From positions 1 through 64,000 of the IMG/VR virus record IMGVR_UViG_3300011271_000004: a stretch of 64,000 nt of DNA; one strand, 5' to 3'. The notes beneath the pieces were generated by a model that saw only the letters and a program-made list of their open reading frames with translations, was not told where the DNA came from and did not search any database. Origin of the DNA: a virus. Of this stretch, positions 37,926-63,316 are shown one piece after another; positions within the stretch are counted from its first letter, which is position 1, and each line of letters opens with the position of its first letter. Made by a program: the position numbers and the translations under genes.

Positions 37926-37939
37926 GTGGTGCTCCTCTC

Positions 37940-41351: not shown

Positions 41352-41361
41352 ACGAGGGGAA

Positions 41362-42678: not shown

Positions 42679-42710
42679 GTGGTTGCTCCTCTCCAAGGCT
42701 GGGGCTGATG

Positions 42711-46569: not shown

Positions 46570-46591
46570 GCTTGGGTGGGGCCGCTGCCCC

Positions 46592-46840: not shown

Positions 46841-46873
46841 GGTGGCGGGCGTACCCACAAAGGAGGCGCAGCA

Positions 46874-48326: not shown

Positions 48327-48353
48327 GCAACTGTCGGCACCGCGCGCAACGAT

Positions 48354-48395
48354 GTACCCGGTGGGGCTGGACAAAATGGCAGACCCACCGGGTAC
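48354..48395 (+). other. 12-bp perfect-stem hairpin overlapping cassette P8
   Basis: GTACCCGGTGGG-18 nt-CCCACCGGGTAC. The loop holds TGGACA and the 3' arm overlaps the dyad. Confidence 0.5.
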
Positions 48396-48453
48396 ACTCG
48401 TGTACGGGGCAAGCGGAAAGGCCGCCAAGGCCCCGCACGGAGAGGAGCACCAC
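48366..48453 (+). promoter_or_regulatory. promoter/operator cassette P8 (plus strand)
   Basis: TGGACA-N19-TACACT, with perfect dyad GGTACAC-TC-GTGTAC (48391-48406). GGAGAGGAGCACCAC precedes the GTG at 48454. Confidence 0.45.
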
Positions 48454-49764
48454 GTGAGCGCAATCGAGACCACCGCCCGCAACGCCGACATGCAAACCAT
48501 CCTCGGCATCCTGAACAACCAGCGGGCACGCCGCCTCGACGTAGTGGCCAACTCAGCCGCCATCCACGCCGTGGATGGCAACCTGGTTGTGGCCGACGCC
48601 ATGGTGGGCATGAGCCTTGAGGGCGGCGTCGGCCGCCAGGACGGCACCTTCCAGCCCACCGCGATCTGCGATGAGAAGCTGGCCGCCCGCCTCGACATCC
48701 CCACCGCCTACCTCAAGAAGCTTCGCGGCTCGGGCCGCACCGACTTGTGGGATGCCAACGTGAACGGGCTGCTGCACGGCGGCGGCGACGTCATCGTGAC
48801 CGACGACGGGCCGACCCTCCAGCACGCCGCTGACCCCCGCAAGCACCTGCTGCGCCTGCTGGCCGGCGACCCCGGCGAAATGGGCGTGGCCCGCGCGGTG
48901 ATGAGCCAGCGGTACCGGTTCATCGAGACCCTGGACTGGGCGCTGGCCGTGCTGGCCGGTATCAACGACAGCGGGGCCACCCCGCTGCCGCCCATCTGCG
49001 ACTTGTCGGACCGCCGGTTCTACATGCGCATCGAAATGCCCGAGATCGCCATGCTGGCCCCCAAGCTGCTGGACGGGTACCGCAACCCCTTCGGCGGCCA
49101 GCAGGCCCGTGAGCGCGCCGGGCTGGGTGACAACGCCCTGCGCATGCAGGAGCGGCACGGGCAGTGGACGGTGGCTGAGGCGCTGGCCGCCGCGCAGGCC
49201 GAGGGCATGGGTTACAAGCCCGGTGAGGAGCCGGTGGTGTGGGCCGGCATTGTGGCCTCCAACTCCGAGACCGGCGACGGCTCGGCCTCCATCGCCCCCC
49301 AGATCCGCGTCAAGGTGTGCCGCAACGGGCTCACCATCGACGCGGCGGCTGACCGCAAGATCCACCTGGGCGGCGCGCTGGCCGAGGGCCAGGTCGAGTG
49401 GTCGCAGGAGACCGCCGAGGCCGAGTTGGCCCTGGTGACCGCGCAGGTCCGCGACGCGGTGCGCACCTGGTGCAAGCCCGAATGGCTGGCCGAGAGGGTG
49501 GCGGAGATCGAGGCGCTGGCCTCGGCCCCCATCGCCAACCCGCAGGCCACCATCAAGGAGGTGGCCAAGGCCACCGGGTTCACCCAGGCGCAGGCCGATG
49601 CGATCCTGGCGTTCTTCATCGACGGCGGGCAGGCCACCGCTGGCGGCCTGGCCAACGCGGCCACCGCGTACGCGCAGACGGTGGCCAGCCCCGAGGTGGC
49701 TAACTTCACCGAGCGGCACGCGGTGGAGTTGATGCAGCGCGCGGCCACCCTGGCCCGCCGCTAA
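48454..49764 (+). CDS. DUF932-like phage/plasmid protein
   Basis: GTG at 48454 follows GGAGAGGAGCACCAC. ARAVMSQRYRFIETLDWALAVL resembles the DUF932 core (from memory). Confidence 0.5.
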   Translation: MSAIETTARNADMQTILGILNNQRARRLDVVANSAAIHAVDGNLVVADAMVGMSLEGGVGRQDGTFQPTAICDEKLAARLDIPTAYLKKLRGSGRTDLWDANVNGLLHGGGDVIVTDDGPTLQHAADPRKHLLRLLAGDPGEMGVARAVMSQRYRFIETLDWALAVLAGINDSGATPLPPICDLSDRRFYMRIEMPEIAMLAPKLLDGYRNPFGGQQARERAGLGDNALRMQERHGQWTVAEALAAAQAEGMGYKPGEEPVVWAGIVASNSETGDGSASIAPQIRVKVCRNGLTIDAAADRKIHLGGALAEGQVEWSQETAEAELALVTAQVRDAVRTWCKPEWLAERVAEIEALASAPIANPQATIKEVAKATGFTQAQADAILAFFIDGGQATAGGLANAATAYAQTVASPEVANFTERHAVELMQRAATLARR

Positions 49765-49771
49765 CAAGGCT

Positions 49772-49812
49772 GGCGGCCCCGGGCTACGCCTCCTCGGCAG
49801 CCCGGGGCCGCC
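49772..49812 (+). terminator. 14-bp perfect-stem hairpin
   Basis: GGCGGCCCCGGGCT-13 nt-AGCCCGGGGCCGCC lies 8 nt after the stop at 49764. Confidence 0.6.
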
Positions 49813-49821
49813 TCTGGCGGT

Positions 49822-49858
49822 GGCCGCCCAGCACACACCTGGCAGGTGCTGGGCGGCC
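49822..49858 (+). terminator. second tandem hairpin (13-bp perfect stem)
   Basis: GGCCGCCCAGCAC-11 nt-GTGCTGGGCGGCC. Confidence 0.55.
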
Positions 49859-49900
49859 TCCGTGAGAGGGGAGCAGGCCGTGGGGCAGTTGGAGGACGTT

Positions 49901-50212
49901 ATGGGCGCGCACCCGCTGGATTGGGCGGCGCTGCTCGATGGCCGCGACGTGCGGCAGTGGCTGGTGGCTATGGGCGCGCTGCCCTTCGGCTCGCCGGGGC
50001 TGCCGGATTCCATGGTGGCCGCGCTGCTGTCCGTGGTGGCCGCTGGCCTGGTGGGCCTACCCGCCGGCTGGTGCGTGTGGCGCGGCGTCGGCCCCCAGCG
50101 GCCCTGGTACGCGCGCAGGCGCCGCACCAGCCCCCCAAGGGTGGTCTGGGGCGGCACACTAGAGCAGGTGGTTCAGCGGGCCGCCGGGTACGGAGAGGAG
50201 CCAACCCGATGA
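49901..50212 (+). CDS. membrane protein
   Basis: ATG at 49901 follows GGAGGA. TM helix MVAALLSVVAAGLVGLPAGW. Confidence 0.5.
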   Translation: MGAHPLDWAALLDGRDVRQWLVAMGALPFGSPGLPDSMVAALLSVVAAGLVGLPAGWCVWRGVGPQRPWYARRRRTSPPRVVWGGTLEQVVQRAAGYGEEPTR

Positions 50213-50523
50213 TTGTGGACAAGGGCCGCCGGTTGTGGGCCGAGGACGTGGCCGCCCTGCTGGGCGTGCTGCCCCGCACGGTGATCTTCTCGGCGTCCAA
50301 GACCAAGCGGAAGCCCGCCCGGGAGCGCAGCCTGGTGGACATGCCGCTGCCCGCTGGCCGCAGGCGCAGGCAGGTGGAAACCAACGCGGGGCAGCCGCGC
50401 ACCGTGGTGTCGCCGTGGTGGCATGAGGCGGACATCCTGGCCTGCCAGGCCGCGCGCCGCGCAGCGGGCACCTTGGCCGTGGACCGCACCCCCGGCGGCC
50501 AGTTCATCAAGGCGGCCGGCTGA
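50209..50523 (+). CDS. HTH DNA-binding protein (excisionase/MerR-like HTH)
   Basis: ATG at 50209 follows GGAGAGGAGCCAACCCG. HTH-like segment WAEDVAALLGVLPRTV. Confidence 0.5.
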   Translation: MIVDKGRRLWAEDVAALLGVLPRTVIFSASKTKRKPARERSLVDMPLPAGRRRRQVETNAGQPRTVVSPWWHEADILACQAARRAAGTLAVDRTPGGQFIKAAG

Positions 50524-51095
50524 TGGCCGCCGCTGCTGGCGTGCAGCCAGGCGACTGGTTTGTGGTGGACCCGGGCAGCGACCTGTTCGACTGGGTGGAG
50601 GCCGCCGAGCGGATGGCCGAGCACCTGACCCACCCCGATGTGCACCAGCGCGAGGGAGAGAAGTGGGGCCACGCCGGGGTAGCCACCCGGTGGGTCGGCG
50701 CGGTGCTGCTGTGCGCGGAGGCTGAGCCCGGCGGGGCGGTGGAGCGGCCGTGGCGGTGGGAAGGCCGTCCCCACATGTGGTCCACCCGCACCGGCCTGTC
50801 GGTGCCCGCCATGGGGCCAGCCGCGCAGCGGTACACCCAGCCTGGCCCGTGGGGGCCTCACGGGGTGCCCTACAGCTTCCTTGACTACGCGGTCATCGGC
50901 GGCCACGCCATGGGCGTGGAAACCGACGAGGTGACCCAGCGGCTGGCCGACTGGCACCACATGATCTGCTCCCAGTTGACCGATCAGGCCGCCCAGGACT
51001 GCGGGGTGCACCTGTTCAGCGACGGCCGTCCCCCGGGGCTGGTTACCCCGCTGGACCTGGGCCTGCTGTTGGAGGCCCACGGGGTGCGGCCGTGA
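50523..51095 (+). CDS. hypothetical protein
   Basis: ATGA overlap with the previous gene. 190 aa. No confident family. Confidence 0.5.
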   Translation: MAAAAGVQPGDWFVVDPGSDLFDWVEAAERMAEHLTHPDVHQREGEKWGHAGVATRWVGAVLLCAEAEPGGAVERPWRWEGRPHMWSTRTGLSVPAMGPAAQRYTQPGPWGPHGVPYSFLDYAVIGGHAMGVETDEVTQRLADWHHMICSQLTDQAAQDCGVHLFSDGRPPGLVTPLDLGLLLEAHGVRP

Positions 51096-51268
51096 AGCTG
51101 GTAGACACCCGGCAGGAGCATTACGCCGAAGCGGAGCGGCTGGTCGCCGGCTACACCAACCGGGACCTGCTGGCCGCAGAAGTCGCGGCAGCCATGACGG
51201 TGGCCCAGGTGCACGCGGCCCTGGCTGCCGCCCCGGCGGAACTGTTCACCGAGGAGCCCCGTGCCTAG
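51092..51268 (+). CDS. small helical protein
   Basis: GTGA overlap at 51092. 58 aa, below the ORF-track cutoff. Good codon bias. Confidence 0.4.
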   Translation: MKLVDTRQEHYAEAERLVAGYTNRDLLAAEVAAAMTVAQVHAALAAAPAELFTEEPRA

Positions 51269-51845
51269 CGTGCACCTGGTAGGCCCCGCCCCCACCGGCT
51301 GGGGTGAGGCGTGGTTCACCGAGGACCGCCGGTACCGGTGGAAGCTGCGCCGCTCGTGGCCGCCCGCCCTTGGCGGCGCTGAGCGCGGCGCGGTGTTCGC
51401 CATGTGCAACCCTTCCGATGCCAGCCACCGCCGCGACGACGCCACCGTGCGCAGGTGCGCCGGGTACGCCAAGGCGTGGGGCTGCGCCTACTTCGAGGCG
51501 GTCAACCTCTCCCCCAAGGTGGCCCACCGGCCCCCGGTGATGCTGGCCGACCTGGCCGCCGCCGGGGACCCGCCGTGGTGGCATGAGGAGAACATGCGCA
51601 CCATTGTGGCCACCTGCGCTGGCGTGGACGCCCCAGCGCAGCCCCTGGTGGTGCTGGCCTGGGGCGGCATAGCCACCCGCCCCGCCGTGGCCCCGCTGGC
51701 CGCCCTGGTGCGCGACAGGCTGGCCCTAGAAGGCATCCCCTGGCACGCCCTCGGCTTCACCAAGGACGGCGAGCCCAAACACCCCTTGTTCCAGCCAGCC
51801 GCCGCACCCTTGCTCACGGCAGATGGCCAACCGTGGCCGTTCTAA
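51261..51845 (+). CDS. DUF1643-like protein
   Basis: RYRWKLRRSW...AVFAMCNPSDAS...DDATVRRC...AVNLSP matches the DUF1643 layout as I recall it. Confidence 0.55.
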   Translation: MPSVHLVGPAPTGWGEAWFTEDRRYRWKLRRSWPPALGGAERGAVFAMCNPSDASHRRDDATVRRCAGYAKAWGCAYFEAVNLSPKVAHRPPVMLADLAAAGDPPWWHEENMRTIVATCAGVDAPAQPLVVLAWGGIATRPAVAPLAALVRDRLALEGIPWHALGFTKDGEPKHPLFQPAAAPLLTADGQPWPF

Positions 51846-51913
51846 GCTGGCTGTACCGCGCCGCCCCGGCCACCGCCCGGGGCGGCGCGGCTGATTGACA
51901 GGGAGCCCCGGTT

Positions 51914-53503
51914 GTGACCGTGCCCGCGTTCCGCCTGGCCGAGCAGCGGTACGACGAGGCCATAGAACTGGCCACCATCACCGAGCACCCCGACAACGCC
52001 AACGAGGGCGAGGTTGGCGTCATCGAGGAGTCGCTGGGCGAACTGGGGTTCTACGGGGCCATCCTGGTGCAAGAGGCCACCCGGCACATCCTGGTAGGCA
52101 ACCACCGGTACCGAGAGGCGCTGGCCCTAGGGGCCACCCACCTGCCCGGCTTCTGGTACACCGGCCCCGACGAGCAGGCCCGCAAGATCATGGCCGTGGA
52201 CAACCGGTCCACCCGCCTGGGTAAGGACAACCGGGCCAAGCTGCTGGCCTTGCTGCGGCCCTTGGGCACCTTGGCAGGCACCGGGTACCGCGAGCGGGAC
52301 ATGCTGGCGCTGCTGCGCGGCCAGGCCCCCGGCAGCGACGGCGCGCCCAGCTTGGCCGACCGGTTCATGGTGCCCCCGTTCGACGTGCTGGACGCCCGCT
52401 CCGGGTGGTGGCGGGCACGCAAAGCCCAATGGCTGGCCACCGGCATTCAATCCGAACTGGGCCGGCTGGGGGGGCTCGCGTACAAAGATCTGCGGCAGAG
52501 TCCTGCACCAGGCAAAGCGATGACGCACGCCCGCGCCGACCCTCGCTACTACGACCTGAAGGCCGCCGCCGAGGTGCGCGCCGGGCGCAAGCTGACCACT
52601 GAGGAGTTCGGTGCCGACTGGTACGAGGCCCCCACCGAGGGTCATGCCACCGGCACCAGCATCTTCGACCCGGTGTTGTGCGAGTTGGCGTACCGGTGGT
52701 GGTGCCCGCCTGGTGGCCAGGTGGTAGACCCGTTCGCTGGCGGCAGCGTGCGCGGCCTGGTAGCCGCCATCTTGGGCCGCGACTACCTGGGGGTGGACCT
52801 GTCCGCCGCCCAGGTAGCAGCCAACGAGGCGCAGGCGCAGGCGTTCCTGGTCGCCGGGCTGCTAGCGCAGCGCCCCGACACCACCGCGCTGGGCGTGGCT
52901 GGGCTGCGCGCTGCCATGGCCGCCGTGCCGCCGCCCCGGGTGCCCCGCTGGAAGACCGGCGATAGCGCCGAGTACCAGTGGCGGCGCGGCTGGGCCGACC
53001 TGCTGTTCACCTGCCCGCCGTATTACGACCTGGAGCGGTACTCCGACGACGAGGCAGACCTGTCGGCCATGGCAGAAGCCGAGTTCGACAAGGCGTACAC
53101 CGCCATCCTGGGCAACGCCACCACCGCGCTGCGCCGCCACCGGTTCGCCGTCGTAGTGGTGGGCGACGTGCGCACCTCAGACGGCCGCCTGCGGGACCTG
53201 CGCGGGCTGACGGTGCGGGCGATGGAACGCGCTGGGCTGACCCTGGCCTCCGGGGCGGTGCTGCTCACCCCCGTGGGCTCGGTGCGGATCGCCGCCGGGC
53301 GCGTCATGGACGCTACCCGCACCCTGGGCCGCGTCCACCAGGATGTGCTGGTGTTCGCCAAGGGCGACCGGGGCAAGGCCGCCAAGGCATGCGGCCACGT
53401 AGACACCTATGTGCCTGACGCCGTGGCAGAAGCCATGGCGACCGCTGGAGAGGAGCAAAGCAATGGCGTACCCAACCGCACCGGCCCCTGGGACGGCGGC
53501 TAG
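51914..53503 (+). CDS. ParB-like N-terminal domain fused to a DNA (N6-A/N4-C) methyltransferase
   Basis: ParB-like HPDNANEG...ILVGNHRYREA. SAM motif VVDPFAGGSVRG. Catalytic motif TCPPYYD. Confidence 0.75.
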   Translation: MTVPAFRLAEQRYDEAIELATITEHPDNANEGEVGVIEESLGELGFYGAILVQEATRHILVGNHRYREALALGATHLPGFWYTGPDEQARKIMAVDNRSTRLGKDNRAKLLALLRPLGTLAGTGYRERDMLALLRGQAPGSDGAPSLADRFMVPPFDVLDARSGWWRARKAQWLATGIQSELGRLGGLAYKDLRQSPAPGKAMTHARADPRYYDLKAAAEVRAGRKLTTEEFGADWYEAPTEGHATGTSIFDPVLCELAYRWWCPPGGQVVDPFAGGSVRGLVAAILGRDYLGVDLSAAQVAANEAQAQAFLVAGLLAQRPDTTALGVAGLRAAMAAVPPPRVPRWKTGDSAEYQWRRGWADLLFTCPPYYDLERYSDDEADLSAMAEAEFDKAYTAILGNATTALRRHRFAVVVVGDVRTSDGRLRDLRGLTVRAMERAGLTLASGAVLLTPVGSVRIAAGRVMDATRTLGRVHQDVLVFAKGDRGKAAKACGHVDTYVPDAVAEAMATAGEEQSNGVPNRTGPWDGG

Positions 53504-53885
53504 CTACACCACCCACGGTCAGGTGGCCCTGGTCCTGGACCTGTTGCCGGGGGTCGGCAACCCGCGCCTGATGACCCCATGGGAGGCCATGACCCTGGCC
53601 ACCGCGCTGCGCGCCGCCGCAGCCGCCCACCCCGGGTTCATCCCCTGCACCAGTTGCGGCGCGCCGATGATCTTCGGCTCCACAACGGCGAACAAGCGCA
53701 ACATGCCCTTGGACCCCGGCGACCACCCCGGGGGAAACCTGGTGGCCTGGTGGCACGACGACCGGCTGTGGGTGCGCGGCCACAAACCCGGCGAGGTGCT
53801 GGCCGCCGGGGAGCACCGCGTGGTGTCGCACTACGCCACCTGCACCAAACCCGATGCTCACCGCCGCCGCCCAGCGGCCCGGTAA
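53463..53885 (+). CDS. zinc-ribbon-like hypothetical protein
   Basis: ATG at 53463 follows GGAGAGGAGCAAAGCA. CTSCGAP...H..C pattern. It overlaps the methyltransferase 3' end. Confidence 0.5.
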   Translation: MAYPTAPAPGTAASYTTHGQVALVLDLLPGVGNPRLMTPWEAMTLATALRAAAAAHPGFIPCTSCGAPMIFGSTTANKRNMPLDPGDHPGGNLVAWWHDDRLWVRGHKPGEVLAAGEHRVVSHYATCTKPDAHRRRPAAR

Positions 53886-53954
53886 ACACCCGCCCAACAC
53901 CCCGCCTGGCGTGCTGTCCCGGCGGCACACCCCTGCGCTAATCTGGTGCCCTCA

Positions 53955-53993
53955 TGCGGGGGGTTGATGCCCGGGGCGGGCCGGCCCCCCGCA
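53955..53993. terminator. hairpin in the convergent gap
   Basis: TGCGGGGGG-21 nt-CCCCCCGCA. Confidence 0.4.
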
Positions 53994-54109
53994 CCCCTCC
54001 CCGGCAAGGTGGTGTCCGCCGTGTGCGCTCCTGGCCCCCATGACCCGTCAGACCAAGCTCTGCTAGCCCACGCCCGCCGCGCCAAGGCCCTGGGCATGTG
54101 CCCCCAGCT

Positions 54110-54334
54110 TCACAAGCTGGCCGCCGATGGCACCTGCCCCGAAGGCTGCGCGGTGCCCGACGACGACAACGGCCACGCGGCCACCACCGCCTCCAACACC
54201 GGGTCACCCGACAGCCACCCATCCAGCAGCGCGTTTATCGCCTCGGCCCTGTTAGTGCCTTGAAGCCGCGCCTTGGCGGCAGCGGCATCCCACCGCACCT
54301 GCGGCACGCGGACGTGTCGGACGGGTGTCGCCAT
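54110..54334 (-). CDS. ribbon-helix-helix regulator candidate, divergent from the transfer genes
   Basis: MATPVRHVRVPQVRWDAAAAKARLQGTNRAEAINALLDGWL fits an RHH layout. It competes with the plus-strand ORF 53946-54263, which shares third codon positions, so codon bias cannot decide between them. Confidence 0.45.
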   Translation of the reverse strand: MATPVRHVRVPQVRWDAAAAKARLQGTNRAEAINALLDGWLSGDPVLEAVVAAWPLSSSGTAQPSGQVPSAASL

Positions 54335-54707
54335 GCCCCCAAGGATGACACGCCCCAGGGCTATTGTGGGTGGACCTGTACCCACAACCTTGGAGGCCGC
54401 CGTGGTGCGCAAGCTTGCAGCCGCGTGGGCGTGGCTGGCCACCTGGCACCACCTGCGCCAGGCCGCCACCGTCCTGCTGGGCTGCCTGGCGCTTGGCGCA
54501 ACCGTGGCCGCATTCGGCCAGTCGTACTGGGCGCTGGTGGAGTGGGCGCGTAACCACCACATCCCCTGGCCCGCCACCTGGCCCCTGCTGGTGGACTCGT
54601 TTATGGCCATGGGCGAGGTGCGGCTATTCATCGCCGCCCTGGACGGCAAGCCCCAAGGCTCCCGGTGGGCGCGGTGTGGCGGGTACTGGCGTGGGCGTGG
54701 GCGCTGA
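54333..54707 (+). CDS. DUF2637-like membrane protein, N-terminal part (frame A)
   Basis: FGQSYWALVEWARNHHIPWPATWPLLVDSFMAMGEV resembles the DUF2637 core. The start is uncertain (ATG 54333 or GTG 54366). Confidence 0.5.
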   Translation: MPPRMTRPRAIVGGPVPTTLEAAVVRKLAAAWAWLATWHHLRQAATVLLGCLALGATVAAFGQSYWALVEWARNHHIPWPATWPLLVDSFMAMGEVRLFIAALDGKPQGSRWARCGGYWRGRGR

Positions 54708-55171
54708 CCGCTGTGGGCCTGGCCGCCAGCCTCGCCGGCAACATCGGCCACGCCGGGTGGCGCATGCCACCGGGCACCCTGGCCACCTTCGCCGTGGCCC
54801 CCGTAGCCGCTGCGGCGGCCCTGGGCACAGCGCTGGGCCTGGTGAAGGTGGCAGCCCCCGACACGGCCAAACCGGTAAACCCGGCGGCTACCGCCCAACC
54901 CCACCAGGAGGCGCACACCAGTGGTCCGGTGTCCCCGCCTACCGGGGGGGCGCAGAAGGCCGCACAGCGCCGCGCGCCGGCAACTGCCGCCCAGCGGGGC
55001 GGCGACGACCCGGCGGCCGTGGCGCAGGCCCGCAAGGCAATCATCAACGCAACATCAAGCGGCGAGGTGCTTACTGACCGTAAGCTCGCCCGAGCAACCG
55101 GTGTCACCAGGTACCGCGCGGCCGTGCTGCTGGCCGAGCGCGCCAACGGGCACCGGCCAGGAGAGGAGTAA
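54665..55171 (+). CDS. DUF2637-like membrane protein, C-terminal part (frame -1) with C-terminal HTH-like tail
   Basis: Two further TM helices (VLAWAWALTAVGLAASLAGNIGHA, LATFAVAPVAAAAALGTALGLV) would complete the domain. Confidence 0.5.
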   Translation: MGAVWRVLAWAWALTAVGLAASLAGNIGHAGWRMPPGTLATFAVAPVAAAAALGTALGLVKVAAPDTAKPVNPAATAQPHQEAHTSGPVSPPTGGAQKAAQRRAPATAAQRGGDDPAAVAQARKAIINATSSGEVLTDRKLARATGVTRYRAAVLLAERANGHRPGEE

Positions 55172-55173
55172 CC

Positions 55174-55563
55174 ATGGCCGCACCGGCCCCCGACCCGCAA
55201 GGCCCCGCCTACTCGATTGCCGCCCTGGCCCGCATCCCCGTCCGCGACGGGATGAAGGCCAGCGAGATCGCCTACCTGTGCAACTCCCAGGCCCACACCG
55301 CAGAGACCCTGGCCGGGGTGATCGACCAGCAGGCCCATGCCCTCCAAGGGATTATGGCCCGCACCCAAGGCAACATGTGGGACGCCTTCCGGGCGCGGCA
55401 GGCCGCCCGCCGCGCCACCCGCCCCATGCGGCAGGCCGCCGACCGGATCCGCGCCGGGGCTGCGTCGTCGCGGGCGTGCTGGCGGGTCACCTCCCAGGTG
55501 TTCGCCTCGGTGATGAACCCGACGCCTAAGCGCCAGCGCAAGGGACCGGACTGGACCAAGTAG
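55174..55563 (+). CDS. hypothetical protein
   Basis: ATG at 55174 follows GGAGAGGAGTAACC. 129 aa. Confidence 0.55.
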   Translation: MAAPAPDPQGPAYSIAALARIPVRDGMKASEIAYLCNSQAHTAETLAGVIDQQAHALQGIMARTQGNMWDAFRARQAARRATRPMRQAADRIRAGAASSRACWRVTSQVFASVMNPTPKRQRKGPDWTK

Positions 55564-55591
55564 CCACACCCCCGCTCGGAGGAAACCAGGG

Positions 55592-57703
55592 ATGGCAGCG
55601 AAACGCCCCCGCCCGGCCAGCATGGCCGAGCAGACCATGGAGCACGTGGTGGCCCATGAGGCCCGCCGGCTGGTCGTCATGGGCTGGCCGTGGCCGCTGT
55701 GGCTGTTGCTGTGGGCCGCCGGGTGGCGGCTGCACCAGGCGTGGCACACCTGGGGGACCGCCTGGATGGTTGTGCTGGCCGGCCTGGCGCTGGCCGGCCT
55801 GGCGCTGCACCTGACCCACCACCGCAAGAAGATCACCGGCCGGCTGCTGGCCCCGGTCACCACCCTGGCCGCCGCCGACTGGCTGGCGCTGGCCGAGGTG
55901 TACGGGGCGGCCACCCGCACCGAGCTATTCCGGGTGTGGCTCATCGGCGGCGGCACGGTGGCGCTGGGCTGGTCCATGTGGTTGCACATCCACGATGGCG
56001 GCGACGAAGCCGGGCACGCCCTGGGCCTGGATGAGGCCAGCACGCATACCAGCGTGCCGGGGCTGCGCGCCTGGGTGACTGAGCGGCTGCCCAACAAGGT
56101 AGCCGGGGTGATCCGCCACGCCCCCGGCATCACCACCGCCGAGGTGGTCAAGGCCACCGGGTCGCTGGAGTCGGCGCGGGGCCTGCCGCCGGGCACCTTG
56201 CAGGTGACCCAGCACCCGGACAACGCGCAGCTATCCAAGTTCGTCATGACCAATCCCCGGCTGCTGGACAAGCCCGCACTGTGGCCCGGTGCGTCGCGCC
56301 CCGGCGGCAGCTTCGCGGCCCCGATCCGGTACGGCCTGTTCACCGATGGCACCACCTGCGAGGTGCCGGCGAACAACTACCACGTGCAGATCATGGGCAA
56401 AACCGGGGCGGCGAAAACCACCGGGCCGGGGTACAACGAACTGGCGGAGACGATCACCCGCACCGACGCCGCCGTGCTGGCATGCGACCCGGCGAAGCGG
56501 CAGCAGTTCCTTGGCCCCTTGGCCCCCGCCTTGCACGAGTTCGCCACCACCCCCGGCGACACACGCGAGTTGTTCCACGCGGTGCTGTCGGACATGGTGC
56601 CGCAGCGCACCGACTACCTGGCCACCCAGGGGCTGACCCAGTGGCAGAAAGGCTGCGGGCTGACCCACTTGACGCTGTGGTGCGAGGAAGCCTCGTGGGT
56701 GTTCAACAAGTGCCTGACCGACCGGGACATCGAAAAGTGGGTGGTACCCGGGGTGGTGGCCGCCCGCTCCGCCGCCATCCGGTGCGCGTTCTCCATCCAG
56801 CGCGCCGACTTCACCATGATGCCCACCGTCATCCGCGCGCAGATGTGCCGCATCACCTGCGGGTGCGCTGGCAAAGACGACGCCGCCTTCGGCCTGACGG
56901 ATTACCAGGATGACCACGGCTGCGACCCCGCCCGGTGGGGCAGCGAGAAGCCGGGCATGTTCTACATCGACGTGGACGGGGTGCCCGACACCTACAAGGT
57001 GATGGCCGCACGCTCCTACTGGTGGGGGCCAGACTCAACCATGATCGCCCAGCACGCCCGCCAGTGGGCCATCGACGCCGGCCAGCGCCAGCCACTCGAC
57101 CGGCTGGCCGCCGCAACCCTAGGCGGCATGCACCACACCATGGCCCAAGCGGCCGAAACCAGCGGCCAGCCAGCCGCACCGGCCAAGGCTAGGCCGTCCA
57201 CCACCCTCACTGGCGGGCAGGCGCAGCAGCCACCCGCAGCCGCAGCAGCGGCCACCCAACAGGAGGGCCAAGCCATGGCCGACTACGAACCAGAAGACCC
57301 CGACGAGCCCACCGGGGCCGCCCACGACGATGGCCGGCTGTGGGCCGCCGCCGCCGGGGCCAGCGCTGGCGATTACGCCCCCGGCGACGTGGCCGCCGAC
57401 CCGGCCGTGGCCGACTTCGCCTTCGGCGACCCAGGCGCTGCCCCGGACAACGTGACCCGCCTGCCCCAAACCCTCGACCAGGCCATCGCCGCGCTGCGCC
57501 GCCAAGTCCGCACCTGGTGGACCCAAGGCGCAACCGAGATCACCATGGACATGGTGCTGGGCCTCACCGACGACCCCGACCACGAAAACTACATCGACCG
57601 CTCCCGCCCCTGGCTGTACCCGGCGATGGCCGCCTTGGTGGACGACCCGGAAATGCACCTGGAGCAGCACGACGGGCCGCGCAGGTGGACCCGCGCCGCA
57701 TGA
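55592..57703 (+). CDS. FtsK/SpoIIIE-family DNA translocase (Streptomyces TraB-like)
   Basis: N-terminal TM helices. Walker A-like IMGKTGAAKT. Walker B LTLWCEEAS. Acidic linker followed by a C-terminal region of about 90 aa. Confidence 0.75.
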   Translation: MAAKRPRPASMAEQTMEHVVAHEARRLVVMGWPWPLWLLLWAAGWRLHQAWHTWGTAWMVVLAGLALAGLALHLTHHRKKITGRLLAPVTTLAAADWLALAEVYGAATRTELFRVWLIGGGTVALGWSMWLHIHDGGDEAGHALGLDEASTHTSVPGLRAWVTERLPNKVAGVIRHAPGITTAEVVKATGSLESARGLPPGTLQVTQHPDNAQLSKFVMTNPRLLDKPALWPGASRPGGSFAAPIRYGLFTDGTTCEVPANNYHVQIMGKTGAAKTTGPGYNELAETITRTDAAVLACDPAKRQQFLGPLAPALHEFATTPGDTRELFHAVLSDMVPQRTDYLATQGLTQWQKGCGLTHLTLWCEEASWVFNKCLTDRDIEKWVVPGVVAARSAAIRCAFSIQRADFTMMPTVIRAQMCRITCGCAGKDDAAFGLTDYQDDHGCDPARWGSEKPGMFYIDVDGVPDTYKVMAARSYWWGPDSTMIAQHARQWAIDAGQRQPLDRLAAATLGGMHHTMAQAAETSGQPAAPAKARPSTTLTGGQAQQPPAAAAAATQQEGQAMADYEPEDPDEPTGAAHDDGRLWAAAAGASAGDYAPGDVAADPAVADFAFGDPGAAPDNVTRLPQTLDQAIAALRRQVRTWWTQGATEITMDMVLGLTDDPDHENYIDRSRPWLYPAMAALVDDPEMHLEQHDGPRRWTRAA

Positions 57704-57906
57704 CCGAGCACCGGCCGGCGCTCATCGTGGGCAACCCGGCCCCATCGGAACGGCCGCCGCCCACATGTAGCCGCTGCGGCGACCGGCTGGTCTGCATCCG
57801 ACGCGGGGTATGGCTGTACTGGTATTCCGCCCGGGGCACCCTGATGGCGCTTGAATGCCACGGGGCCGCCGAACCCGCCCGCGCAGGCGCACGCGGGTGC
57901 ACCTGA
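57700..57906 (+). CDS. small zinc-ribbon-like protein
   Basis: ATGA overlap with the translocase stop. CSRCGDRLVC motif. Confidence 0.45.
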   Translation: MTEHRPALIVGNPAPSERPPPTCSRCGDRLVCIRRGVWLYWYSARGTLMALECHGAAEPARAGARGCT

Positions 57907-58065
57907 CAAGATCACCTAGCGGGTGCCCGCTCGCGCGCATCTGTCAGGCTGTGCGCGGGCGGGGGCTGGGGGAGGGGTTCTCTCCCAGGCCACGCGGTTG
58001 TCAGATGGCCTGACAAGATCGTCTGACAGTCCCCTGACGTAGCCTTCTGACAAGGCGCTGACAAC
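57902..58065. repeat. array of 8 (C/T)CTGACA(A/G) repeats (6 direct, 2 inverted)
   Basis: TGAC(A/G) cores at 57905, 58011, 58024, 58035 (TGACG), 58047 and 58059 (direct), and at 57942 and 57999 (inverted). The last five are spaced 13/11/12/12 nt. CCTGACAAGATC occurs twice exactly. Confidence 0.85.
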
Positions 58066-58080
58066 CGGGAGGAGGCCAAG

Positions 58081-58449
58081 GTGGCTAAGCCTTTGAAGGA
58101 GCGGAAGCCGGCCCACGTGTGGGCCTGGGTGTGGGGTGCGTGGGGGGTGGCTGCGCTGGCGCTGCCCGCCTGGGTGCCCATCCTGGGGGTGTTGGCCATC
58201 CTGGGGTTCTACGCCCTGGTGTGCCGGGTGCTGCCCACCTACGACTGCCCGAGGTGTGCCGGTAAGGACCGTTCCGCCAGGCTGGTGGTGGCTGCCTTGG
58301 CCGCCCTGGTCGGCGGCCACCGGGCCGGGTGCCGCTCCAAGCGGTGCCACGGCGGCGAGCGCATCCGCCTGGGGGTGCGGCTGCTACAGCCCGCACGGGC
58401 GGAGTGGCTGGCACGCAACCCCGGCCGGCCCGAGCGGATTAGCGCATGA
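58081..58449 (+). CDS. membrane protein with Cys-rich cytoplasmic part
   Basis: GTG follows GGGAGGAGG. TM helices, then CPRCAGK...C..KRCHGG. Confidence 0.55.
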   Translation: MAKPLKERKPAHVWAWVWGAWGVAALALPAWVPILGVLAILGFYALVCRVLPTYDCPRCAGKDRSARLVVAALAALVGGHRAGCRSKRCHGGERIRLGVRLLQPARAEWLARNPGRPERISA

Positions 58450-58715
58450 GCGGCTACCACCCGCACCCGGTCACAACCGGGGCACCGGGGTGGGTGGTGC
58501 TGGCCGGCTGGGCGGTCATCCTGCTGGCCGGTGGAATCCTGGCCGGCTGCGCGCTGACGGTGGCTGGCCGGTGGGCGGCCACCCGGCTGCGGCTGATCGC
58601 CCGGCCGATGCACGACGACCACGGCCGTCAGCCACCCGTGGCTGGCTGGCCGGACTTCATGGCCGGGCATGCTGAGCTTCAGCCACCCGGAGAGGACAAG
58701 CCGTGGACCTGTTGA
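58446..58715 (+). CDS. membrane protein
   Basis: ATGA overlap with the previous gene. TM helix WVVLAGWAVILLAGGILAGCALTV. Confidence 0.5.
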   Translation: MSGYHPHPVTTGAPGWVVLAGWAVILLAGGILAGCALTVAGRWAATRLRLIARPMHDDHGRQPPVAGWPDFMAGHAELQPPGEDKPWTC

Positions 58716-58966
58716 CTGAACCGCCGTTCGTGGTGCTGCGCGCCGCGCGGGGCGTGCCGCCCGGGTGGATGCCTACGGAGCTAGAGGGCCGCTGGTATTC
58801 CCGCACGGACCTGCTTGGGGTACCACCGGCCAGCCACCTACAGCCACCCGGCCCGGCGGTGGCCATCCCGACCAGCCGCATCGAGCACCGCGACAGCGAC
58901 GGAGCGACGGCGCAGGTGTGGGAAGTGCACCCACGTGACGGCAACTACGCCAACGATGGCGACTAA
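58703..58966 (+). CDS. hypothetical protein
   Basis: GTG at 58703 follows GGAGAGGACAAGCC. 87 aa. Confidence 0.5.
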   Translation: MDLLTEPPFVVLRAARGVPPGWMPTELEGRWYSRTDLLGVPPASHLQPPGPAVAIPTSRIEHRDSDGATAQVWEVHPRDGNYANDGD

Positions 58967-58986
58967 CCTGGAGAGGAGCAGCCACG

Positions 58987-59667
58987 ATGATGGGCGAAAC
59001 GCACATGCTGGGCGGCGTGGCCGCCTGGGCCGGCATCTGCGCCCTGGCGCAGCCAACACCAGGGGTGGTGGTGGCCGGTGCGGGGCTGGCCGTAGCTGGC
59101 GGCCTGGCCCCCGACATCGACCACCGCCGCGCCGACGCCGCGCAGATCGCACGCGGCGCAGGGTGGGCCGCCGTGGCCGCCGGGGGTCTGCTGGCCCTCG
59201 CCGCCACCTCGGTGTCACCGTGGCACCGGTACTGGCCGGCCATCGTGGCCGCCGGGCTGCTGGTGGCGTCGCTGCCGTGGGTGACCCGGCCCCGCTGCGG
59301 CGGCCACTTCCGTGGCCCCGTCCACTCCATGTGGGGCCTGGCCGCCGCCATCGCCCTGGCCCTCGGCCCCGCCGCGTTCGGGCTGTGGCCCGGGTGGGCT
59401 GGCGTAGCGGTCATAGCCGGGTGGTGCAGCCACCTGGTGCTGGACGCCATGACCAAGGAAGGCATCCCGCTGGCGTGGAACCTGCTGACCGGCGACCCTG
59501 GCCCCCGGTTCGCCTTCCTGCCCCGCGACGCCTCTATGACCACCGGGGGCAAGCGGCGCGGCAGGAAGTGGCGGCGGCGCAGCGGCCCCGAATACTGGCT
59601 GGTGCAACCCGCACTGATCTGCATTGCCGTGGTGGCAGCGTTCGCCACCCTGGGCAGCTACCGGTGA
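58987..59667 (+). CDS. membrane-bound metal-dependent hydrolase (YdjM/DUF457-like)
   Basis: ATG follows GGAGAGGAGCAGCCACG. THMLGG...PDIDH...HFRGPVHS...HLVLDAMTKEGIPL is His-rich motif spacing like DUF457. Confidence 0.55.
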   Translation: MMGETHMLGGVAAWAGICALAQPTPGVVVAGAGLAVAGGLAPDIDHRRADAAQIARGAGWAAVAAGGLLALAATSVSPWHRYWPAIVAAGLLVASLPWVTRPRCGGHFRGPVHSMWGLAAAIALALGPAAFGLWPGWAGVAVIAGWCSHLVLDAMTKEGIPLAWNLLTGDPGPRFAFLPRDASMTTGGKRRGRKWRRRSGPEYWLVQPALICIAVVAAFATLGSYR

Positions 59668-59972
59668 ACGCCGCCCGGTACGACGTGGCCGACCTTGGCG
59701 GGCGGGTGCTGGCCGTGGACGTCACCGCCAAGGAAGCCACCCGCCTGGTGGAAGCCTTCGGCGGCGCAGCCCGCGTCCGGTTCCACGGCGACGCCAGTAA
59801 CCAGGTGCCCCCAATGGCTGACCGTCATCCCCGGAGCTGGTGGTACGGGCTGGCCGGTGACATCGAGAACCTTGGGTACTGGTACAAGGCCGGCAGCCTG
59901 CGGCGTCGGCTTCACGACCGGCTGGCTGACGCCTGCCGCTGGTGGGGCCGGACTGGGGCACCCCGTGACTAG
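59664..59972 (+). CDS. hypothetical protein
   Basis: GTGA overlap at 59664. 102 aa. Confidence 0.45.
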   Translation: MNAARYDVADLGGRVLAVDVTAKEATRLVEAFGGAARVRFHGDASNQVPPMADRHPRSWWYGLAGDIENLGYWYKAGSLRRRLHDRLADACRWWGRTGAPRD

Positions 59973-60495
59973 CCGCTACCCCACCCCGCCGGATCTGCTG
60001 GCCGAGTACGAGGCCGCAGCCGGTGATCCGTTCGCCCAGGCCGCAGCCGTGCTCAAACTCAACCAGCGGCGCGGCCACGCCTATGCGCCGCTGCCTACAG
60101 GAGGTGTGCGCACTGTGACCGGCCCGACGATCCCACCGGATCTGTCGATCGTTGCCCACCGCGAATACGTGGGGGAACGGCCCCGCTCATCGCGCTGCCC
60201 GTGGCGCATCCACTGGGGCACCACCCCGGAAGCAACCACCCAGTGTGACAAACCCGAACACGTCACTACCGTGGCCGTGGACACCCTGGCCGGCGGGCGG
60301 CTGGCAGTCACCGTAGAAGGCGATGGCCACCACGACGGGCCGGGGCTGTATGACCACCAGCGGATTAGCTGGCTGGCCGGCGACCGCCGCGAATACCGGG
60401 GGGAATGGCCCGGCCCATGCGCCAAACTGCCCGGCCAGCCCCTAGCCGGCGGCTGCACCCTGCACACCGGCCACCACGGAAGGTGCGCGCCATGA
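59965..60495 (+). CDS. hypothetical Cys/His-containing protein
   Basis: In-frame GTG at 59965 overlaps the previous stop. 176 aa. Confidence 0.45.
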   Translation: MTSRYPTPPDLLAEYEAAAGDPFAQAAAVLKLNQRRGHAYAPLPTGGVRTVTGPTIPPDLSIVAHREYVGERPRSSRCPWRIHWGTTPEATTQCDKPEHVTTVAVDTLAGGRLAVTVEGDGHHDGPGLYDHQRISWLAGDRREYRGEWPGPCAKLPGQPLAGGCTLHTGHHGRCAP

Positions 60496-60845
60496 CCGGC
60501 CCCTACCCGTTTAACCCGGATTGGACGGTGGCCCCAGCCGCCGCCCTCCACGAGCTAATGACCGAACGGGGCTACACCGTGGCCCGCCTGGCCGCTGATA
60601 TGGCCACCACCACCTACGGCACCGGGCACTACTGGCCGGTGGCTAAGGCCGCCGCCGGCATCCGTGCCGTGCTGGCCCGCGAGCCGATGCCCGGGGAGTT
60701 CCCCGCCGCCATGTTCTACGCCCTAGGCGGCGTACCCTCGGCTAGCTTCTGGGCCAACTATGAGGTGCAGTACCGCACTGATCTGGCCGCCGGGCGCAAA
60801 GACACCACCGGCCCAACACCCGAGCCAAAGGAACGGGAGCAATGA
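60492..60845 (+). CDS. possible HTH protein
   Basis: ATGA overlap with the previous gene. LHELMTERGYTVARLAADM is HTH-like. Confidence 0.45.
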   Translation: MTGPYPFNPDWTVAPAAALHELMTERGYTVARLAADMATTTYGTGHYWPVAKAAAGIRAVLAREPMPGEFPAAMFYALGGVPSASFWANYEVQYRTDLAAGRKDTTGPTPEPKEREQ

Positions 60846-60976
60846 GCGCGGAGGCGGTCGCCGTCCTGGTCGCTTGCGTGGCCCGCCTGATCTCAGTGGC
60901 GTCGCTGGCGCACAACGTGCGTACTTACCACCGGCAGACCGGCTGGTGGGTACCCCCCAAGCCTGGGAGGCAGTGA
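60842..60976 (+). CDS. small hydrophobic protein
   Basis: 44 codons, below the ORF-track cutoff. Overlapping start and stop. Confidence 0.3.
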   Translation: MSAEAVAVLVACVARLISVASLAHNVRTYHRQTGWWVPPKPGRQ

Positions 60977-61473
60977 TGCCATCAGCTACCGCCACCGTGG
61001 CCACCCCCACCGGGGAACTGCGATGCGAGCGCACCCTGGAGGAGGTGCATTGGGAAGACGGCCCGGTGGAAACCTGGCAGCACACCGACGACCACGGCCA
61101 CGCCCACGCCTACCAGCAGCAGGCCGTACCCGGTGAGGTGTGGCGCAAAGGGAAACGGCGGCACGACCGCACCACCCACTACCCCACCCTGCGGCTGGTC
61201 ATCGACCGCCGGTACCGGTGCAACTGCACGGGCGACCCGCATTGGGTAGAAACCTCCCACTACGAGTGCACCCAGTGCCGCCAGGCCATTGAGCCCGCCC
61301 ACGGCCCCGGGTGCACGATGATCCCCACCTACGAGGCGTGGACCCTGGACGGGCAGCCCATCACCCGCGAACGCGGCCACGAACTACTCCAGGCCGCCCT
61401 GGCCGAACGGCAGCACCAGGCCCACACCGAGGTGGCCGCCCGCCTCGGCTACCCCGAGGAGTTCACCCGATGA
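60976..61473 (+). CDS. Cys/His-rich hypothetical protein
   Basis: In-frame ATG at 60976. CNCTGDPHW...YECTQC motif. Confidence 0.5.
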   Translation: MPSATATVATPTGELRCERTLEEVHWEDGPVETWQHTDDHGHAHAYQQQAVPGEVWRKGKRRHDRTTHYPTLRLVIDRRYRCNCTGDPHWVETSHYECTQCRQAIEPAHGPGCTMIPTYEAWTLDGQPITRERGHELLQAALAERQHQAHTEVAARLGYPEEFTR

Positions 61474-61880
61474 AAGGCACCTGGCAAACCACCAGCGGCG
61501 GAGGCGGCGCGGCCGTGGGCACCGCCCTGGTAATCCTGGGCGCGGCGTACCTGCTGGCCAAGGCCCCCGCCGCGCTCCACGCCGGCGGCGCATTCCTAGG
61601 CAACCTGGTCAGGCTAGCCGTCATCACCGCAGCCAGCCTCGCCACCCTGGCCGCCACCGCAACCGCCGCCGTGGTGCTGTACCGCCGCAGGCCCCCCCGC
61701 CAGGTGACACCGGCCTACCGGGCACGAGCCACCATGCTGCCATCCAGCCACCTGCCCATGCCCGCACCGCCACCAGCCAAGGCGCTGCCCGCCGCCCGCC
61801 AGGACGTGCACCTACACTTCCACGGCATGACCCCCGACCAGGTAGCCGAAGCCATCCGCCAAGCCCAGGCCCCCCAGTGA
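61470..61880 (+). CDS. membrane protein
   Basis: ATGA overlap with the previous gene. Two TM helices. Confidence 0.5.
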   Translation: MKGTWQTTSGGGGAAVGTALVILGAAYLLAKAPAALHAGGAFLGNLVRLAVITAASLATLAATATAAVVLYRRRPPRQVTPAYRARATMLPSSHLPMPAPPPAKALPAARQDVHLHFHGMTPDQVAEAIRQAQAPQ

Positions 61881-62050
61881 ACCGCGCCGCCGCCGCTGTC
61901 ACCTGGGCCATGGCCTGGCTCACCTGGCCCTACCTCACCCGCCAGCTACGCCGCGAAGGCTGGCACCGTGTGGGCTGGGCCACCTGGGAATCCCCCGACC
62001 CCATAAGCGGCGGCACCACCTGGATCCACCCCACTAAGGCCACCCCATGA
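61877..62050 (+). CDS. small Trp-rich protein
   Basis: GTGA overlap with the previous gene. 57 codons, below the ORF-track cutoff. Confidence 0.3.
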   Translation: MNRAAAAVTWAMAWLTWPYLTRQLRREGWHRVGWATWESPDPISGGTTWIHPTKATP

Positions 62051-62250
62051 CGCACGGCCCCAAAGCACGCCTTGCCTGGTACTGGCGCAGGCTCCGCCGC
62101 CAGCCCGCAACCGTGACCCGCCACCACGGCAGCGCATGGTTCACTGCCGTACTAGACCCCCGCCCACCCTGGCGCAGGCCCCGCCCACCTGACTGGACCG
62201 GCTGGCAAGAGCTAGGCGCAACCGAGGACGACCACCGGGGATGGCTATGA
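62047..62250 (+). CDS. small basic protein
   Basis: ATGA overlap with the previous gene. 67 aa. Confidence 0.4.
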   Translation: MTHGPKARLAWYWRRLRRQPATVTRHHGSAWFTAVLDPRPPWRRPRPPDWTGWQELGATEDDHRGWL

Positions 62251-63236
62251 CCCTGCCCGCACCACCACCCGGCCTCCCCCCAGAACAAGCCACCATCTGG
62301 GCCACCACCACCACCCAACTAACCAACCTCGGCATCACCCAAGTAGACCCACGCCATCTACGCGCCTACACCCGCACCGCCCACACCCTCGACCAAGCCA
62401 CCTACCTACTCGACCAAGCCGGACCCCTCATCAACCACGACGGCCGCGTAACCCCCAACCCAGCCGCCACCACCCACCGCACCGCCGCACGCGACCTAGC
62501 CCGCCTCGCAGTAACCCTCGGCCTCACCAGGCCCGCCGCCGCTCCTGCCAGGCATGATGCCGGGGTACCCATGGAAACGCCGCCGCCCCGGGCGCATGGT
62601 GCGCACGACCACTGGGGCGCGCGGTACTGCGAGGATCACAAGCGGTGGGAGTGCACCGGCCAGCGGTCCAAGGGCCGGGGGCAGTGCCACAAGCCAGCGT
62701 CGCGCGGGCTCAACACGTGCAACATGCACCAGGGCCGGGGCGGCAAGATCAAGCACCTGGCGGCGGTGGCGGAGCAGGAGGCGGTGCGCCTGGGCGGCCG
62801 GCTGCCCGGTGGGCGTGAGGCCCCGGAGATCCACCCGGCTGATGCGCTGTTGTACCAGGTCAGGTACTGGGCGGGGCTGTGCGGGTGGCTGGATGACATG
62901 GTGGCCGCGTTGGAGCAAGGCACCATGGTGTGGGGGCTGGTGCGGGAAACCGACGCCAGCGGCGGTGAGTACCCGGGGCGCACGACGATTCATGGGGCGG
63001 GCCTTGCGGTGTGGGTGCAGTGGCATGAGCGGGCGCACAAGCAACTGGCGTGGGTGTGTGAGATTGCGTTGCGCGCGGAGGTGGATCAGGCGGCGCTGGC
63101 GTTGCAGCAGGCCCAGGGGATGCAGGCGTTCCGCGCCTTCCAAGCTGGGCTCCAGCGGCTGGGCCTGACGGCGGATCAGTGGGCCACCGCCAGGGCGGTC
63201 ATGCCCCAGGTGCTGCGGGCGCTGGTGGCGGCGTGA
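62241..63236 (+). CDS. terS: terminase small subunit (P27-family N-terminal domain) with a long C-terminal extension
   Basis: LPPEQATIWATTTTQLTNLGITQVDPRHLRAYTRTAHTLDQATYLLDQAG...TPNPAATTHRTAARDLARLAVTLGLT fits the P27 small-terminase pattern. About 220 extra residues include a Cys/His cluster. Confidence 0.65.
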   Translation: MAMTLPAPPPGLPPEQATIWATTTTQLTNLGITQVDPRHLRAYTRTAHTLDQATYLLDQAGPLINHDGRVTPNPAATTHRTAARDLARLAVTLGLTRPAAAPARHDAGVPMETPPPRAHGAHDHWGARYCEDHKRWECTGQRSKGRGQCHKPASRGLNTCNMHQGRGGKIKHLAAVAEQEAVRLGGRLPGGREAPEIHPADALLYQVRYWAGLCGWLDDMVAALEQGTMVWGLVRETDASGGEYPGRTTIHGAGLAVWVQWHERAHKQLAWVCEIALRAEVDQAALALQQAQGMQAFRAFQAGLQRLGLTADQWATARAVMPQVLRALVAA

Positions 63237-63316
63237 ACGGGGAGGTGGCCGTAATGCTGGCGTTCATCGGGCTAGCAGCCCTAGCACTGCTGTTGATTGC
63301 GCTGGTGGCAGCGTGA
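63233..63316 (+). CDS. 27-aa hydrophobic peptide
   Basis: GTGA overlaps at both ends. Sequence MLAFIGLAALALLLIALVAA. Confidence 0.3.
   Translation: MNGEVAVMLAFIGLAALALLLIALVAA

Follow-up and report, generated by a model that had tools for sequence, protein, structure and literature searches.

A probable clt locus, made of CTGACA repeats, at the end of a traB-like gene in a tailed-phage genome

What is the role of a dense cluster of short CTGACA repeats lying just behind a traB-like gene in the genome of a tailed phage? The question is raised by the 64,000-nucleotide stretch of DNA analysed here (positions 1 to 64,000 of IMG/VR record IMGVR_UViG_3300011271_000004, hereafter the window), in which an earlier note had proposed the cluster as a candidate clt locus. 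The clt loci known so far consist of direct 8-bp repeats recognised by the C-terminal domain of the TraB translocase (PMC4447253, PMC11571958, PMC3429521), and they have been experimentally defined for only a handful of Streptomyces plasmids. Our analysis indicates that the array is probably the clt of the adjacent TraB module, with its units acting as TraB recognition sequences (TRS); binding and activity in cis are what we infer here. Several lines of evidence favour this reading: the window has no second CTGACA cluster of this kind, relatives keep both the place and the layout of the array, the motif changes together with the predicted recognition helix (H3) of TraB, and homologous plasmids have proven clt loci. 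For a highly divergent TraB, a candidate clt mapped to eight units is now available for testing.

Reading of the sequence together with pattern searches located eight units of the CTGACA(A/G) type within positions 57902 to 58064, six of them direct and two inverted. They are given below, where L numbers designate related loci used for comparison (L037/L038 is a metagenome contig and L047 an IMG/VR contig).

57902–57913, plus strand: unit 1, CCTGACAAGATC, an extended 12-mer also kept in L037 and L047
57941–57948, minus strand: unit 2, CCTGACAG as reverse complement, in the loop of a GC-rich hairpin
57998–58005, minus strand: unit 3, TCTGACAA as reverse complement, which forms an inverted repeat with unit 4
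58009–58020, plus strand: unit 4, CCTGACAAGATC, a 12-mer identical to unit 1, which opens the direct run
58022–58029, plus strand: unit 5, TCTGACAG
58033–58040, plus strand: unit 6, CCTGACGT, with a variant core (G at core position 6)
58046–58053, plus strand: unit 7, TCTGACAA
58057–58064, plus strand: unit 8, GCTGACAA, with G before the core instead of C/T

The eight units, the inverted copies, the identical 12-mers and the inverted repeat TTGTCAG-N5-CTGACAA, which spans 57998–58016 and joins units 3 and 4, are all present as the earlier note had described them. Most of its positions and words also hold, although it had placed unit 7 at 58045 and had C/T preceding every core, including that of unit 8. 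In the direct run, the cores begin at 58010, 58023, 58034, 58047 and 58058, which gives spacings of 13, 11, 13 and 11 bp (mean 12 bp) and not 13, 11, 12 and 12 as previously counted. On B-DNA of 10.5 bp per turn, a mean spacing of 12 bp drifts by about half a turn over 48 bp, so the units are regularly spaced but not strictly helix-phased, and the idea that they fall on one face of the helix was an overstatement.

Counting both strands, the 64 kb contain 17 copies of the hexamer CTGACA, seven of them inside 161 bp. Dinucleotide shuffles predict 25.9 ± 4.7 copies for the whole window, whereas only 10 are found outside the array, so that the word is rarer than expected beyond it. It also lacks any strand or orientation bias in the window, unlike guide words of the KOPS type. 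When all hexamers were scanned in windows of 180 bp with correction for background (raw counts had favoured GC-rich words), the array ranked first of all hexamer clusters in the window, with a Poisson −log10 p of 12.9. By the independent gene calls of JGI for the same contig, the array is non-coding, as traB and the gene that follows the array are adjacent in them. A chance origin of the array was also considered, and it was rejected by the shuffles, the hexamer-cluster scan and the family-wide position test described below.

One further feature of the units is that an extended form, TGACA(A/T)GATC, stands at one end of several arrays: at 57902–57913 and 58009–58020 in the window, and at positions 8335 of L015, 8444 of L025, 7986 of L026 and 8233 of L037. 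This form, which contains GATC, recurs in lineages with different core words (CTGACA vs GTGACA) and may be a special site.

The genes ahead of the array, and the parts of TraB that matter for the argument, are the following.

55174–55563, plus strand: small traA-like gene, directly upstream of traB (NCBIfam NF041213 plasmid_TraA, E 1.1e-6, under the curated cut-off)
55592–57703, plus strand: traB, predicted FtsK-like conjugative translocase of double-stranded DNA (dsDNA), 703 amino acids (aa), with a match to NF041214 plasmid_TraB
57443–57700, plus strand: C-terminal winged-helix domain of TraB in an AlphaFold2 model (aa 618–703)
57605–57643, plus strand: predicted recognition helix H3 of TraB (aa 672–684), RPWLYPAMAALVD
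57700–57906, plus strand: open reading frame (ORF) of 68 codons, doubtful as a gene

As far as sequence comparison and modelling go, the 703-aa product is a distant full-length homologue of TraB with a winged-helix C-terminus, in agreement with the TraB-like assignment made before. The family model NF041214 aligns with residues 33–696 of the 703 (E 6.6e-80, 269 bits). A profile built from 13 homologues matches the FtsK motor structures 2IUU, 2IUT and 2IUS in the PDB (E 1.8e-4 to 5e-4), and invariant Walker-A residues G269, G272 and K275, together with E365/E366, identify a P-loop motor of the FtsK/SpoIIIE type. Hydrophobic stretches at aa 30–75 and 85–130 can be seen by eye in the translated N-terminus. 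Searches with tblastn recovered the TraB proteins of plasmids pJV1 (29% identity, 2e-26) and pWTY27 (27%, 5e-25), as well as annotated TraB and FtsK/SpoIIIE genes in 50 actinomycete plasmid records; a nucleotide search of plasmids gave a single weak match. The protein also matches the unannotated PHROG family phrog_24831. Its family is of moderate size: a search of 1.84 billion representatives gave 489 clusters (50% identity, E ≤ 1e-30). The C-terminal domain, modelled with AlphaFold2 on 13 sequences, shows a mean pLDDT of 86.6 and the topology H-S-H-H-S-S; its top Foldseek matches in the PDB are nearly all winged-helix proteins (TM ~0.5–0.6), and one TraB homologue (P0015) bears the Pfam domain FtsK_gamma (PF09397). 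A profile of this domain run against PDB sequences returned compositional noise, mostly calmodulin.

The small gene ahead of traB is annotated by JGI as TraA-like (PF28214). A traA-like gene likewise precedes traB in pWTY27 and pJV1, and homologues occupy the same place in L037, L047, L040 and L045. Among the TraB homologues, one of 1051 aa (P0012) carries a LAGLIDADG-type domain (Pfam PF14528), which points to an insertion in the translocase, either an intein or a homing endonuclease.

Between traB and the array, the earlier note had placed a zinc-ribbon gene, which is the 68-codon ORF listed above, whose TGA stop codon is included in unit 1. We regard it as doubtful because it was not called by JGI, it has zero homologues in 65 related loci (tblastn), its G+C at codon positions 1/2/3 (.68/.68/.81) shows a weaker pattern than that of traB (.69/.54/.91), and the array lies nearer to traB in the closest relatives: it begins 42 bp past the traB stop in L037 and L047, compared with 199 nt in the window.

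A comparison across the family also links the array with traB. The loci examined included 36 from Streptosporangiales and other actinomycete genomes, metagenome contigs encoding the closest homologues, the 19 IMG/VR contigs that carry a TraB homologue, and plasmids pWTY27 and pJV1. In 32 of 52 non-redundant loci the best hexamer cluster fell between −200 and +450 bp of the traB stop, where chance predicts about 5% per locus (binomial p ~1e-28), and in many of the remaining loci an array at the end of traB ranked second. The same scan recovered the clt of pJV1 and that of pWTY27, which served as positive controls. Over 47 loci the median offset from the traB stop to the array was 26 nt. Across relatives, arrays contain 5–12 copies (median 7), and the commonest spacing on the same strand is 12 bp; multiples lie near 23, 34 and 45, and a period of 11.25 bp fits best. 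Many of them have in common the layout “+ − − + + + +”, and the window and L037 follow almost the same spacing series (39/38, 57, 11 ...) though their TraB proteins are only 53% identical. An array at the traB stop is thus a family-wide feature over about 50 Streptosporangiales, metagenomic and viral loci.

Close relatives also preserve the sequence of this region. In an alignment of the window with L037 and L047, the array region has 80% mean column identity, with the cores, two GC hairpins and the downstream ribosome-binding site (RBS) all conserved. Nucleotide identity is 77–87% in the array region vs 72–81% in traB, so that conservation of the array region equals or exceeds that of the flanking genes.

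The repeat word, on the other hand, varies by lineage. At least eight words were found, namely CTGACA, CGTGACAC, CGTGGCAC, CGTGGCCCC, CGTTGCAC, GGTGCACA, CGCGACA and GGGGTATC, and shorter forms across lineages include GTGACAC, GTGGCAC, GTTGCAC, GTGCACA, GCGACA and GTGGCCCC. Loci labelled “GTGCCA” belong to the GTGGCAC class, read on the other strand. When motif distance was compared with sequence distance in segments of TraB over 47 loci (Mantel comparison), the partial correlation of the motif with H3 was 0.47 with the motor controlled, whereas that with the motor was −0.05 with H3 controlled. Helix H3 keeps r = 0.35–0.44 when H1, S1-H2 or the wing is controlled, and these segments fall to 0.03–0.19 when H3 is. 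Pairs of loci illustrate the same trend: the window and L037 share only 50% identity in the motor, but their H3 is identical (16/16) and so is their word, whereas L010 and L006 have motors 88% identical, an H3 of 69% identity and different words (GTGGCAC vs GTTGCAC). The residue that follows an invariant Trp is V/A in the GTGGCAC class vs F/I in the GTGGCCCC class. These sequence comparisons support the view that the repeat word tracks helix H3 better than the motor or other winged-helix segments, a relationship that is correlative and partly confounded by ancestry. Such covariation supplies data from which a winged-helix/DNA recognition code could be worked out and helix-swap experiments designed.

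In terms of layout, the array has the features of a clt: it lies beside the 3′ end of a tra gene, it combines several short repeats with inverted repeats, and its word varies among relatives together with H3. If it works as one, the C-terminal winged helices of the adjacent TraB would read the CTGACA(A/G) units through H3, and several domains of one or more TraB hexamers would occupy the run spaced at about 12 bp and the flanking inverted units. This occupancy would assemble the FtsK-like ring on the double-stranded element, and the membrane-anchored motor could then pump dsDNA into a neighbouring hypha or hyphal compartment.

Several observations weigh against this reading. The score of TraB against NF041214 (269 bits) is well below the equivalog cut-off of 800 bits, so that, in spite of its full-length alignment, the protein is a distant TraB homologue and not an equivalog by the NCBI threshold; a Pfam run on TraB and nine neighbours returned zero families for TraB at E ≤ 0.01. 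The winged-helix matches found with Foldseek all have E > 0.1, and FtsK gamma is outside the top 50. No clear array was seen in L041/L046, L048 and L058, and the one in L045 is weak. Every TraB segment keeps some positive partial correlation with the motif, which means that shared ancestry inflates the Mantel statistics and permutation p-values, and only the ranking of H3 is informative. Unit 8 ends 4 nt ahead of the RBS of the next gene, as would suit an operator. Finally, the module sits in a phage genome, where its conjugative function is something we infer, and a tblastn search of 50,697 GenBank phage records for a TraB homologue gave no match.

Might the units then bind a regulator, or a TraB that controls its own expression, and govern the downstream operon of small membrane proteins or the termination and anti-termination of traB, instead of acting as a transfer origin? 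The elements on which such an operator array would depend are these.

57927–57962, no strand assigned: GC-rich hairpin or inverted repeat with a 13-bp stem and unit 2 in the loop, kept in L037 and L047
57966–57988, no strand assigned: second hairpin, CTGGGGGAG...CTCTCCCAG, conserved, in the 57-bp spacer
58069–58449, plus strand: RBS (GGAGGAGG, at 58069–58076) and gene for a 122-aa membrane protein with a GTG start at 58081

The gene starting at 58081 heads a run of small genes that includes YdjM (58987–59667; PF04307, E 1.1e-15); its homologues come after the array in L037, L047 and L040, with RBS and start codon conserved in the alignment. Besides the short distance between array and RBS, an operator would be consistent with the conserved GC hairpins inside the array, with the resemblance of CTGACA to the −35 hexamer TTGACA, and with the Kil-Kor control that governs the tra/spd genes of Streptomyces (PMC4447253). 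However, the array holds no −35/−10 pair with usable spacing, and a consensus scan of 57500–58400 found neither a sigma-70 promoter nor an intrinsic terminator, which counts against the stacked −35 elements suggested in the earlier note. There is no GntR/KorA-type regulator among the ORFs scanned, and 5–12 direct copies at about 12 bp are atypical for a repressor operator; moreover, the motif tracks the recognition helix of TraB, and the homologous arrays of pWTY27 and pJV1 are proven clt loci. We consider an operator in place of a clt unlikely; as a second function it is compatible with a clt. The RNA fold of 57860–58080 has a z of −3.8, and the hairpin at 57927–57962 escaped the terminator scan because it has no U-tract; the two conserved GC hairpins probably terminate the traB transcript, contribute to the architecture of the clt, or both. 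An Rfam search yielded sub-threshold eukaryotic or viral noise only.

Two other readings would tie the array to proteins encoded elsewhere in the window, and involve the following features.

51914–53503: ParB-like N-terminal domain fused to an N6/N4 DNA methyltransferase (phrog_723/620 and phrog_498/12517, PF01555)
43756–43851: 12-bp tandem array, GATGCGGGCGCA, about eight copies, in a non-coding gap of ~1.4 kb (1.37 kb) between the leftward genes and dnaB

Plasmid centromeres, parC of R1 among them, and replication iterons typically show direct repeats at regular intervals, and the earlier note had pointed to the ParB-domain protein at 51.9 kb as a possible ligand, to which a Rep protein can be added. 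The ParB-like N-terminal domain is indeed there, but as part of a methyltransferase fusion, and this product is no partition ParB. The scanned ORFs include no ParA, and in relatives the array follows traB and not the fusion gene. Small plasmids and chromosomal elements in which this fusion is neither annotated nor detected also have arrays at the end of traB, and the tandem array upstream of dnaB, a candidate for replication-origin iterons or a regulatory array, is a better candidate for an origin. A centromere or iteron role, already only an alternative in the earlier note, has in consequence become highly improbable. Equally improbable is a packaging site of the pac or cosB-like type, recognised by the small terminase whose gene, terS (62241–63236), lies 4.2 kb downstream. 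Clusters of short repeats close to the small-terminase gene are frequent targets of these proteins, as in cosB of lambda or pac of SPP1, and the window does derive from a tailed-phage element. Nevertheless, the array goes with the traB stop in the 32 of 52 loci mentioned above, including chromosomal loci and IMG/VR contigs without a terminase homologue in the fetched flanks (tblastn); pJV1 and pWTY27, which are free of terminases, have arrays of this kind as well, the motif varies together with TraB, and some twelve genes lie between the array and terS.

Taking the array as the probable clt of the TraB module, its setting deserves attention. The window represents the genome of a tailed phage, with gene blocks at 1600–27200, 28700–43100 (minus strand) and 44500–63300. 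It encodes the large terminase (TerL), a Mu-type portal, a capsid and head maturation protease, a tape measure, a GH25 lysin and a 2193-aa fibre protein with Ig domains, as well as a RuvC-like resolvase, DnaB and a PD-(D/E)XK nuclease. Matches to the portal occur in 428 phage records, and its identity to the portals of Gordonia phages is about 40%. No integrase, partition ATPase or repressor was detected among the scanned window ORFs of at least 100 aa, and the window has no tRNA genes. The genes traA and traB and the clt lie between dnaB (replication) and terS (packaging), on the same strand, in a synteny common to L047, L045 and L037/L038; the terS of L047 is 65% identical to that of the window. 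The ends of the 73,554-bp JGI contig Ga0137392_10000006 fall, by coordinate arithmetic, at window positions 41223/41224, inside a continuous ORF. This makes the window another linearisation of that genome and points to a circular or circularly permuted molecule.

A bolder proposal follows, which we hold as tentative and somewhat short of an even chance: that a lineage of tailed actinophages or phage-plasmids, comprising this 73.5-kb contig, IMG/VR contigs L045 and L047 and metagenome contig L037/L038, carries a complete and functional module of traA, traB, clt and membrane genes, and that its genome could move as naked dsDNA through the TraB pore. If this were true, the phage would possess a second transmission route, independent of virions, between mycelia or across hyphal cross-walls. 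An active module could explain the spread of such genomes within the mycelium, and the line between conjugative elements and phages would blur in mycelial actinomycetes.

Two side observations concern repeats of other kinds. In the window, an element of about 30 bp is repeated at 30531–30575, 32747–32790, 35368–35412 and 43043–43087; its minus strand reads TAGTGGAGAGGAGCACCCAATGAG, that is, an RBS plus start codon, and it heads several leftward genes, which suggests a common translation-initiation or leader cassette. In related chromosomal elements, other dense hexamer arrays occur away from traB and are often stronger than the clt-like one. Their words include GATCGA (10–18 copies), CCGTAC (11–12 copies; L007, L008 and L009), CGTCCC (8–12 copies; L010, L035 and L033) and TCCGCA (L030 and L023), and in L021, L023, L024, L031 and L036 an array lies ~3.7–4.2 kb upstream of the traB stop. 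These arrays may be regulator operators or replication iterons.

How does the locus compare with known systems? The chromosomal translocase FtsK is a hexameric dsDNA pump whose C-terminal winged helix (gamma) reads the 8-bp KOPS, GGGNAGGG, and so directs loading. The combination of an FtsK-type motor with a C-terminal winged helix is the one predicted for TraB of the window, whereas KOPS are scattered over the chromosome with strand skew, and the window word clusters in a single locus of 165 bp, is under-represented outside it and has no orientation bias. The ParR/parC centromeres of R1 and pSK41 consist of about 10 direct repeats spaced near the helical repeat and cooperatively bound by a small DNA-binding domain. 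They are look-alikes by repeat spacing; in the window, in contrast, no ParM/ParA-ParR genes were found among the scanned ORFs, and the array is linked to traB in relatives.

Plasmid-phages with conjugative transfer are known in actinomycetes, such as pZL12/PhiZL12 of Streptomyces and PhiNon1 of Nonomuraea gerenzanensis. The window resembles them by description, although neither partition genes nor an integrase were found among its scanned ORFs, and no Streptomyces sp. ZL12 record is among the 50 plasmid records with a TraB match.

The rolling-circle plasmids pJV1 and pSVH1 have TraB proteins only distantly related to that of the window. In our scan, the pJV1 array appeared as nine copies of CCGCACA starting 7 nt past the traB stop; its repeat word, CCGCACA[C/G][C/G], is unlike that of the window, and its TraB is 29% identical. 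The TRS word of pSVH1 was reportedly given as GACCCGGA by Vogelmann in 2011. The clt loci of pJV1 (Servin-Gonzalez 1996; Franco et al. 2003) and pSVH1 (Reuther 2006; Vogelmann et al. 2011) are 8–9-bp direct repeats beside traB, essential for transfer and read by helix alpha-3 of the TraB winged helix, as summarised in PMC4447253 and PMC3583192, and the architecture of clt includes inverted repeats in pIJ101 and pWTY27 (PMC3583192).

Plasmid pWTY27 gives the comparison an experimental footing. Its clt of 175 bp, needed in cis for transfer, comprises 16 bp of the tra gene and 159 bp downstream (PMC3583192), with four TGACACC repeats footprinted by the Tra translocase (Wang et al. 2012, PMC3583192). 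The units found in its record are (C/G)TGACAC, CCTGACAC, CGTGACAC, CCTGACAG and CCTGACGG. The differences lie in TraB (~27% identical), in H3 (25% identical), in the end of the unit (A/G in the window vs CC in pWTY27), in the eight units and 57-bp hairpin-bearing spacer of the window, and in the host element, a 14-kb theta plasmid vs a phage genome of more than 64 kb. The RefSeq record of pWTY27 (L043) also annotates a “phage major capsid protein” at 10642–12102, just downstream of clt, a hint of traffic between TraB elements and phages. Both loci, however, share the TGACA core, the position at the end of a homologous traB-type gene, a small traA ahead of it, and direct 7-bp repeats together with inverted ones. 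The clt/TRS interpretation put forward in the earlier note has therefore gained support from the arrays at the traB stop across the family, from the covariation with H3, and from the pWTY27 and pJV1 loci, which match in position and type; as a clt, the array of the window belongs to an already known type of site, and it is the phage setting that is notable.

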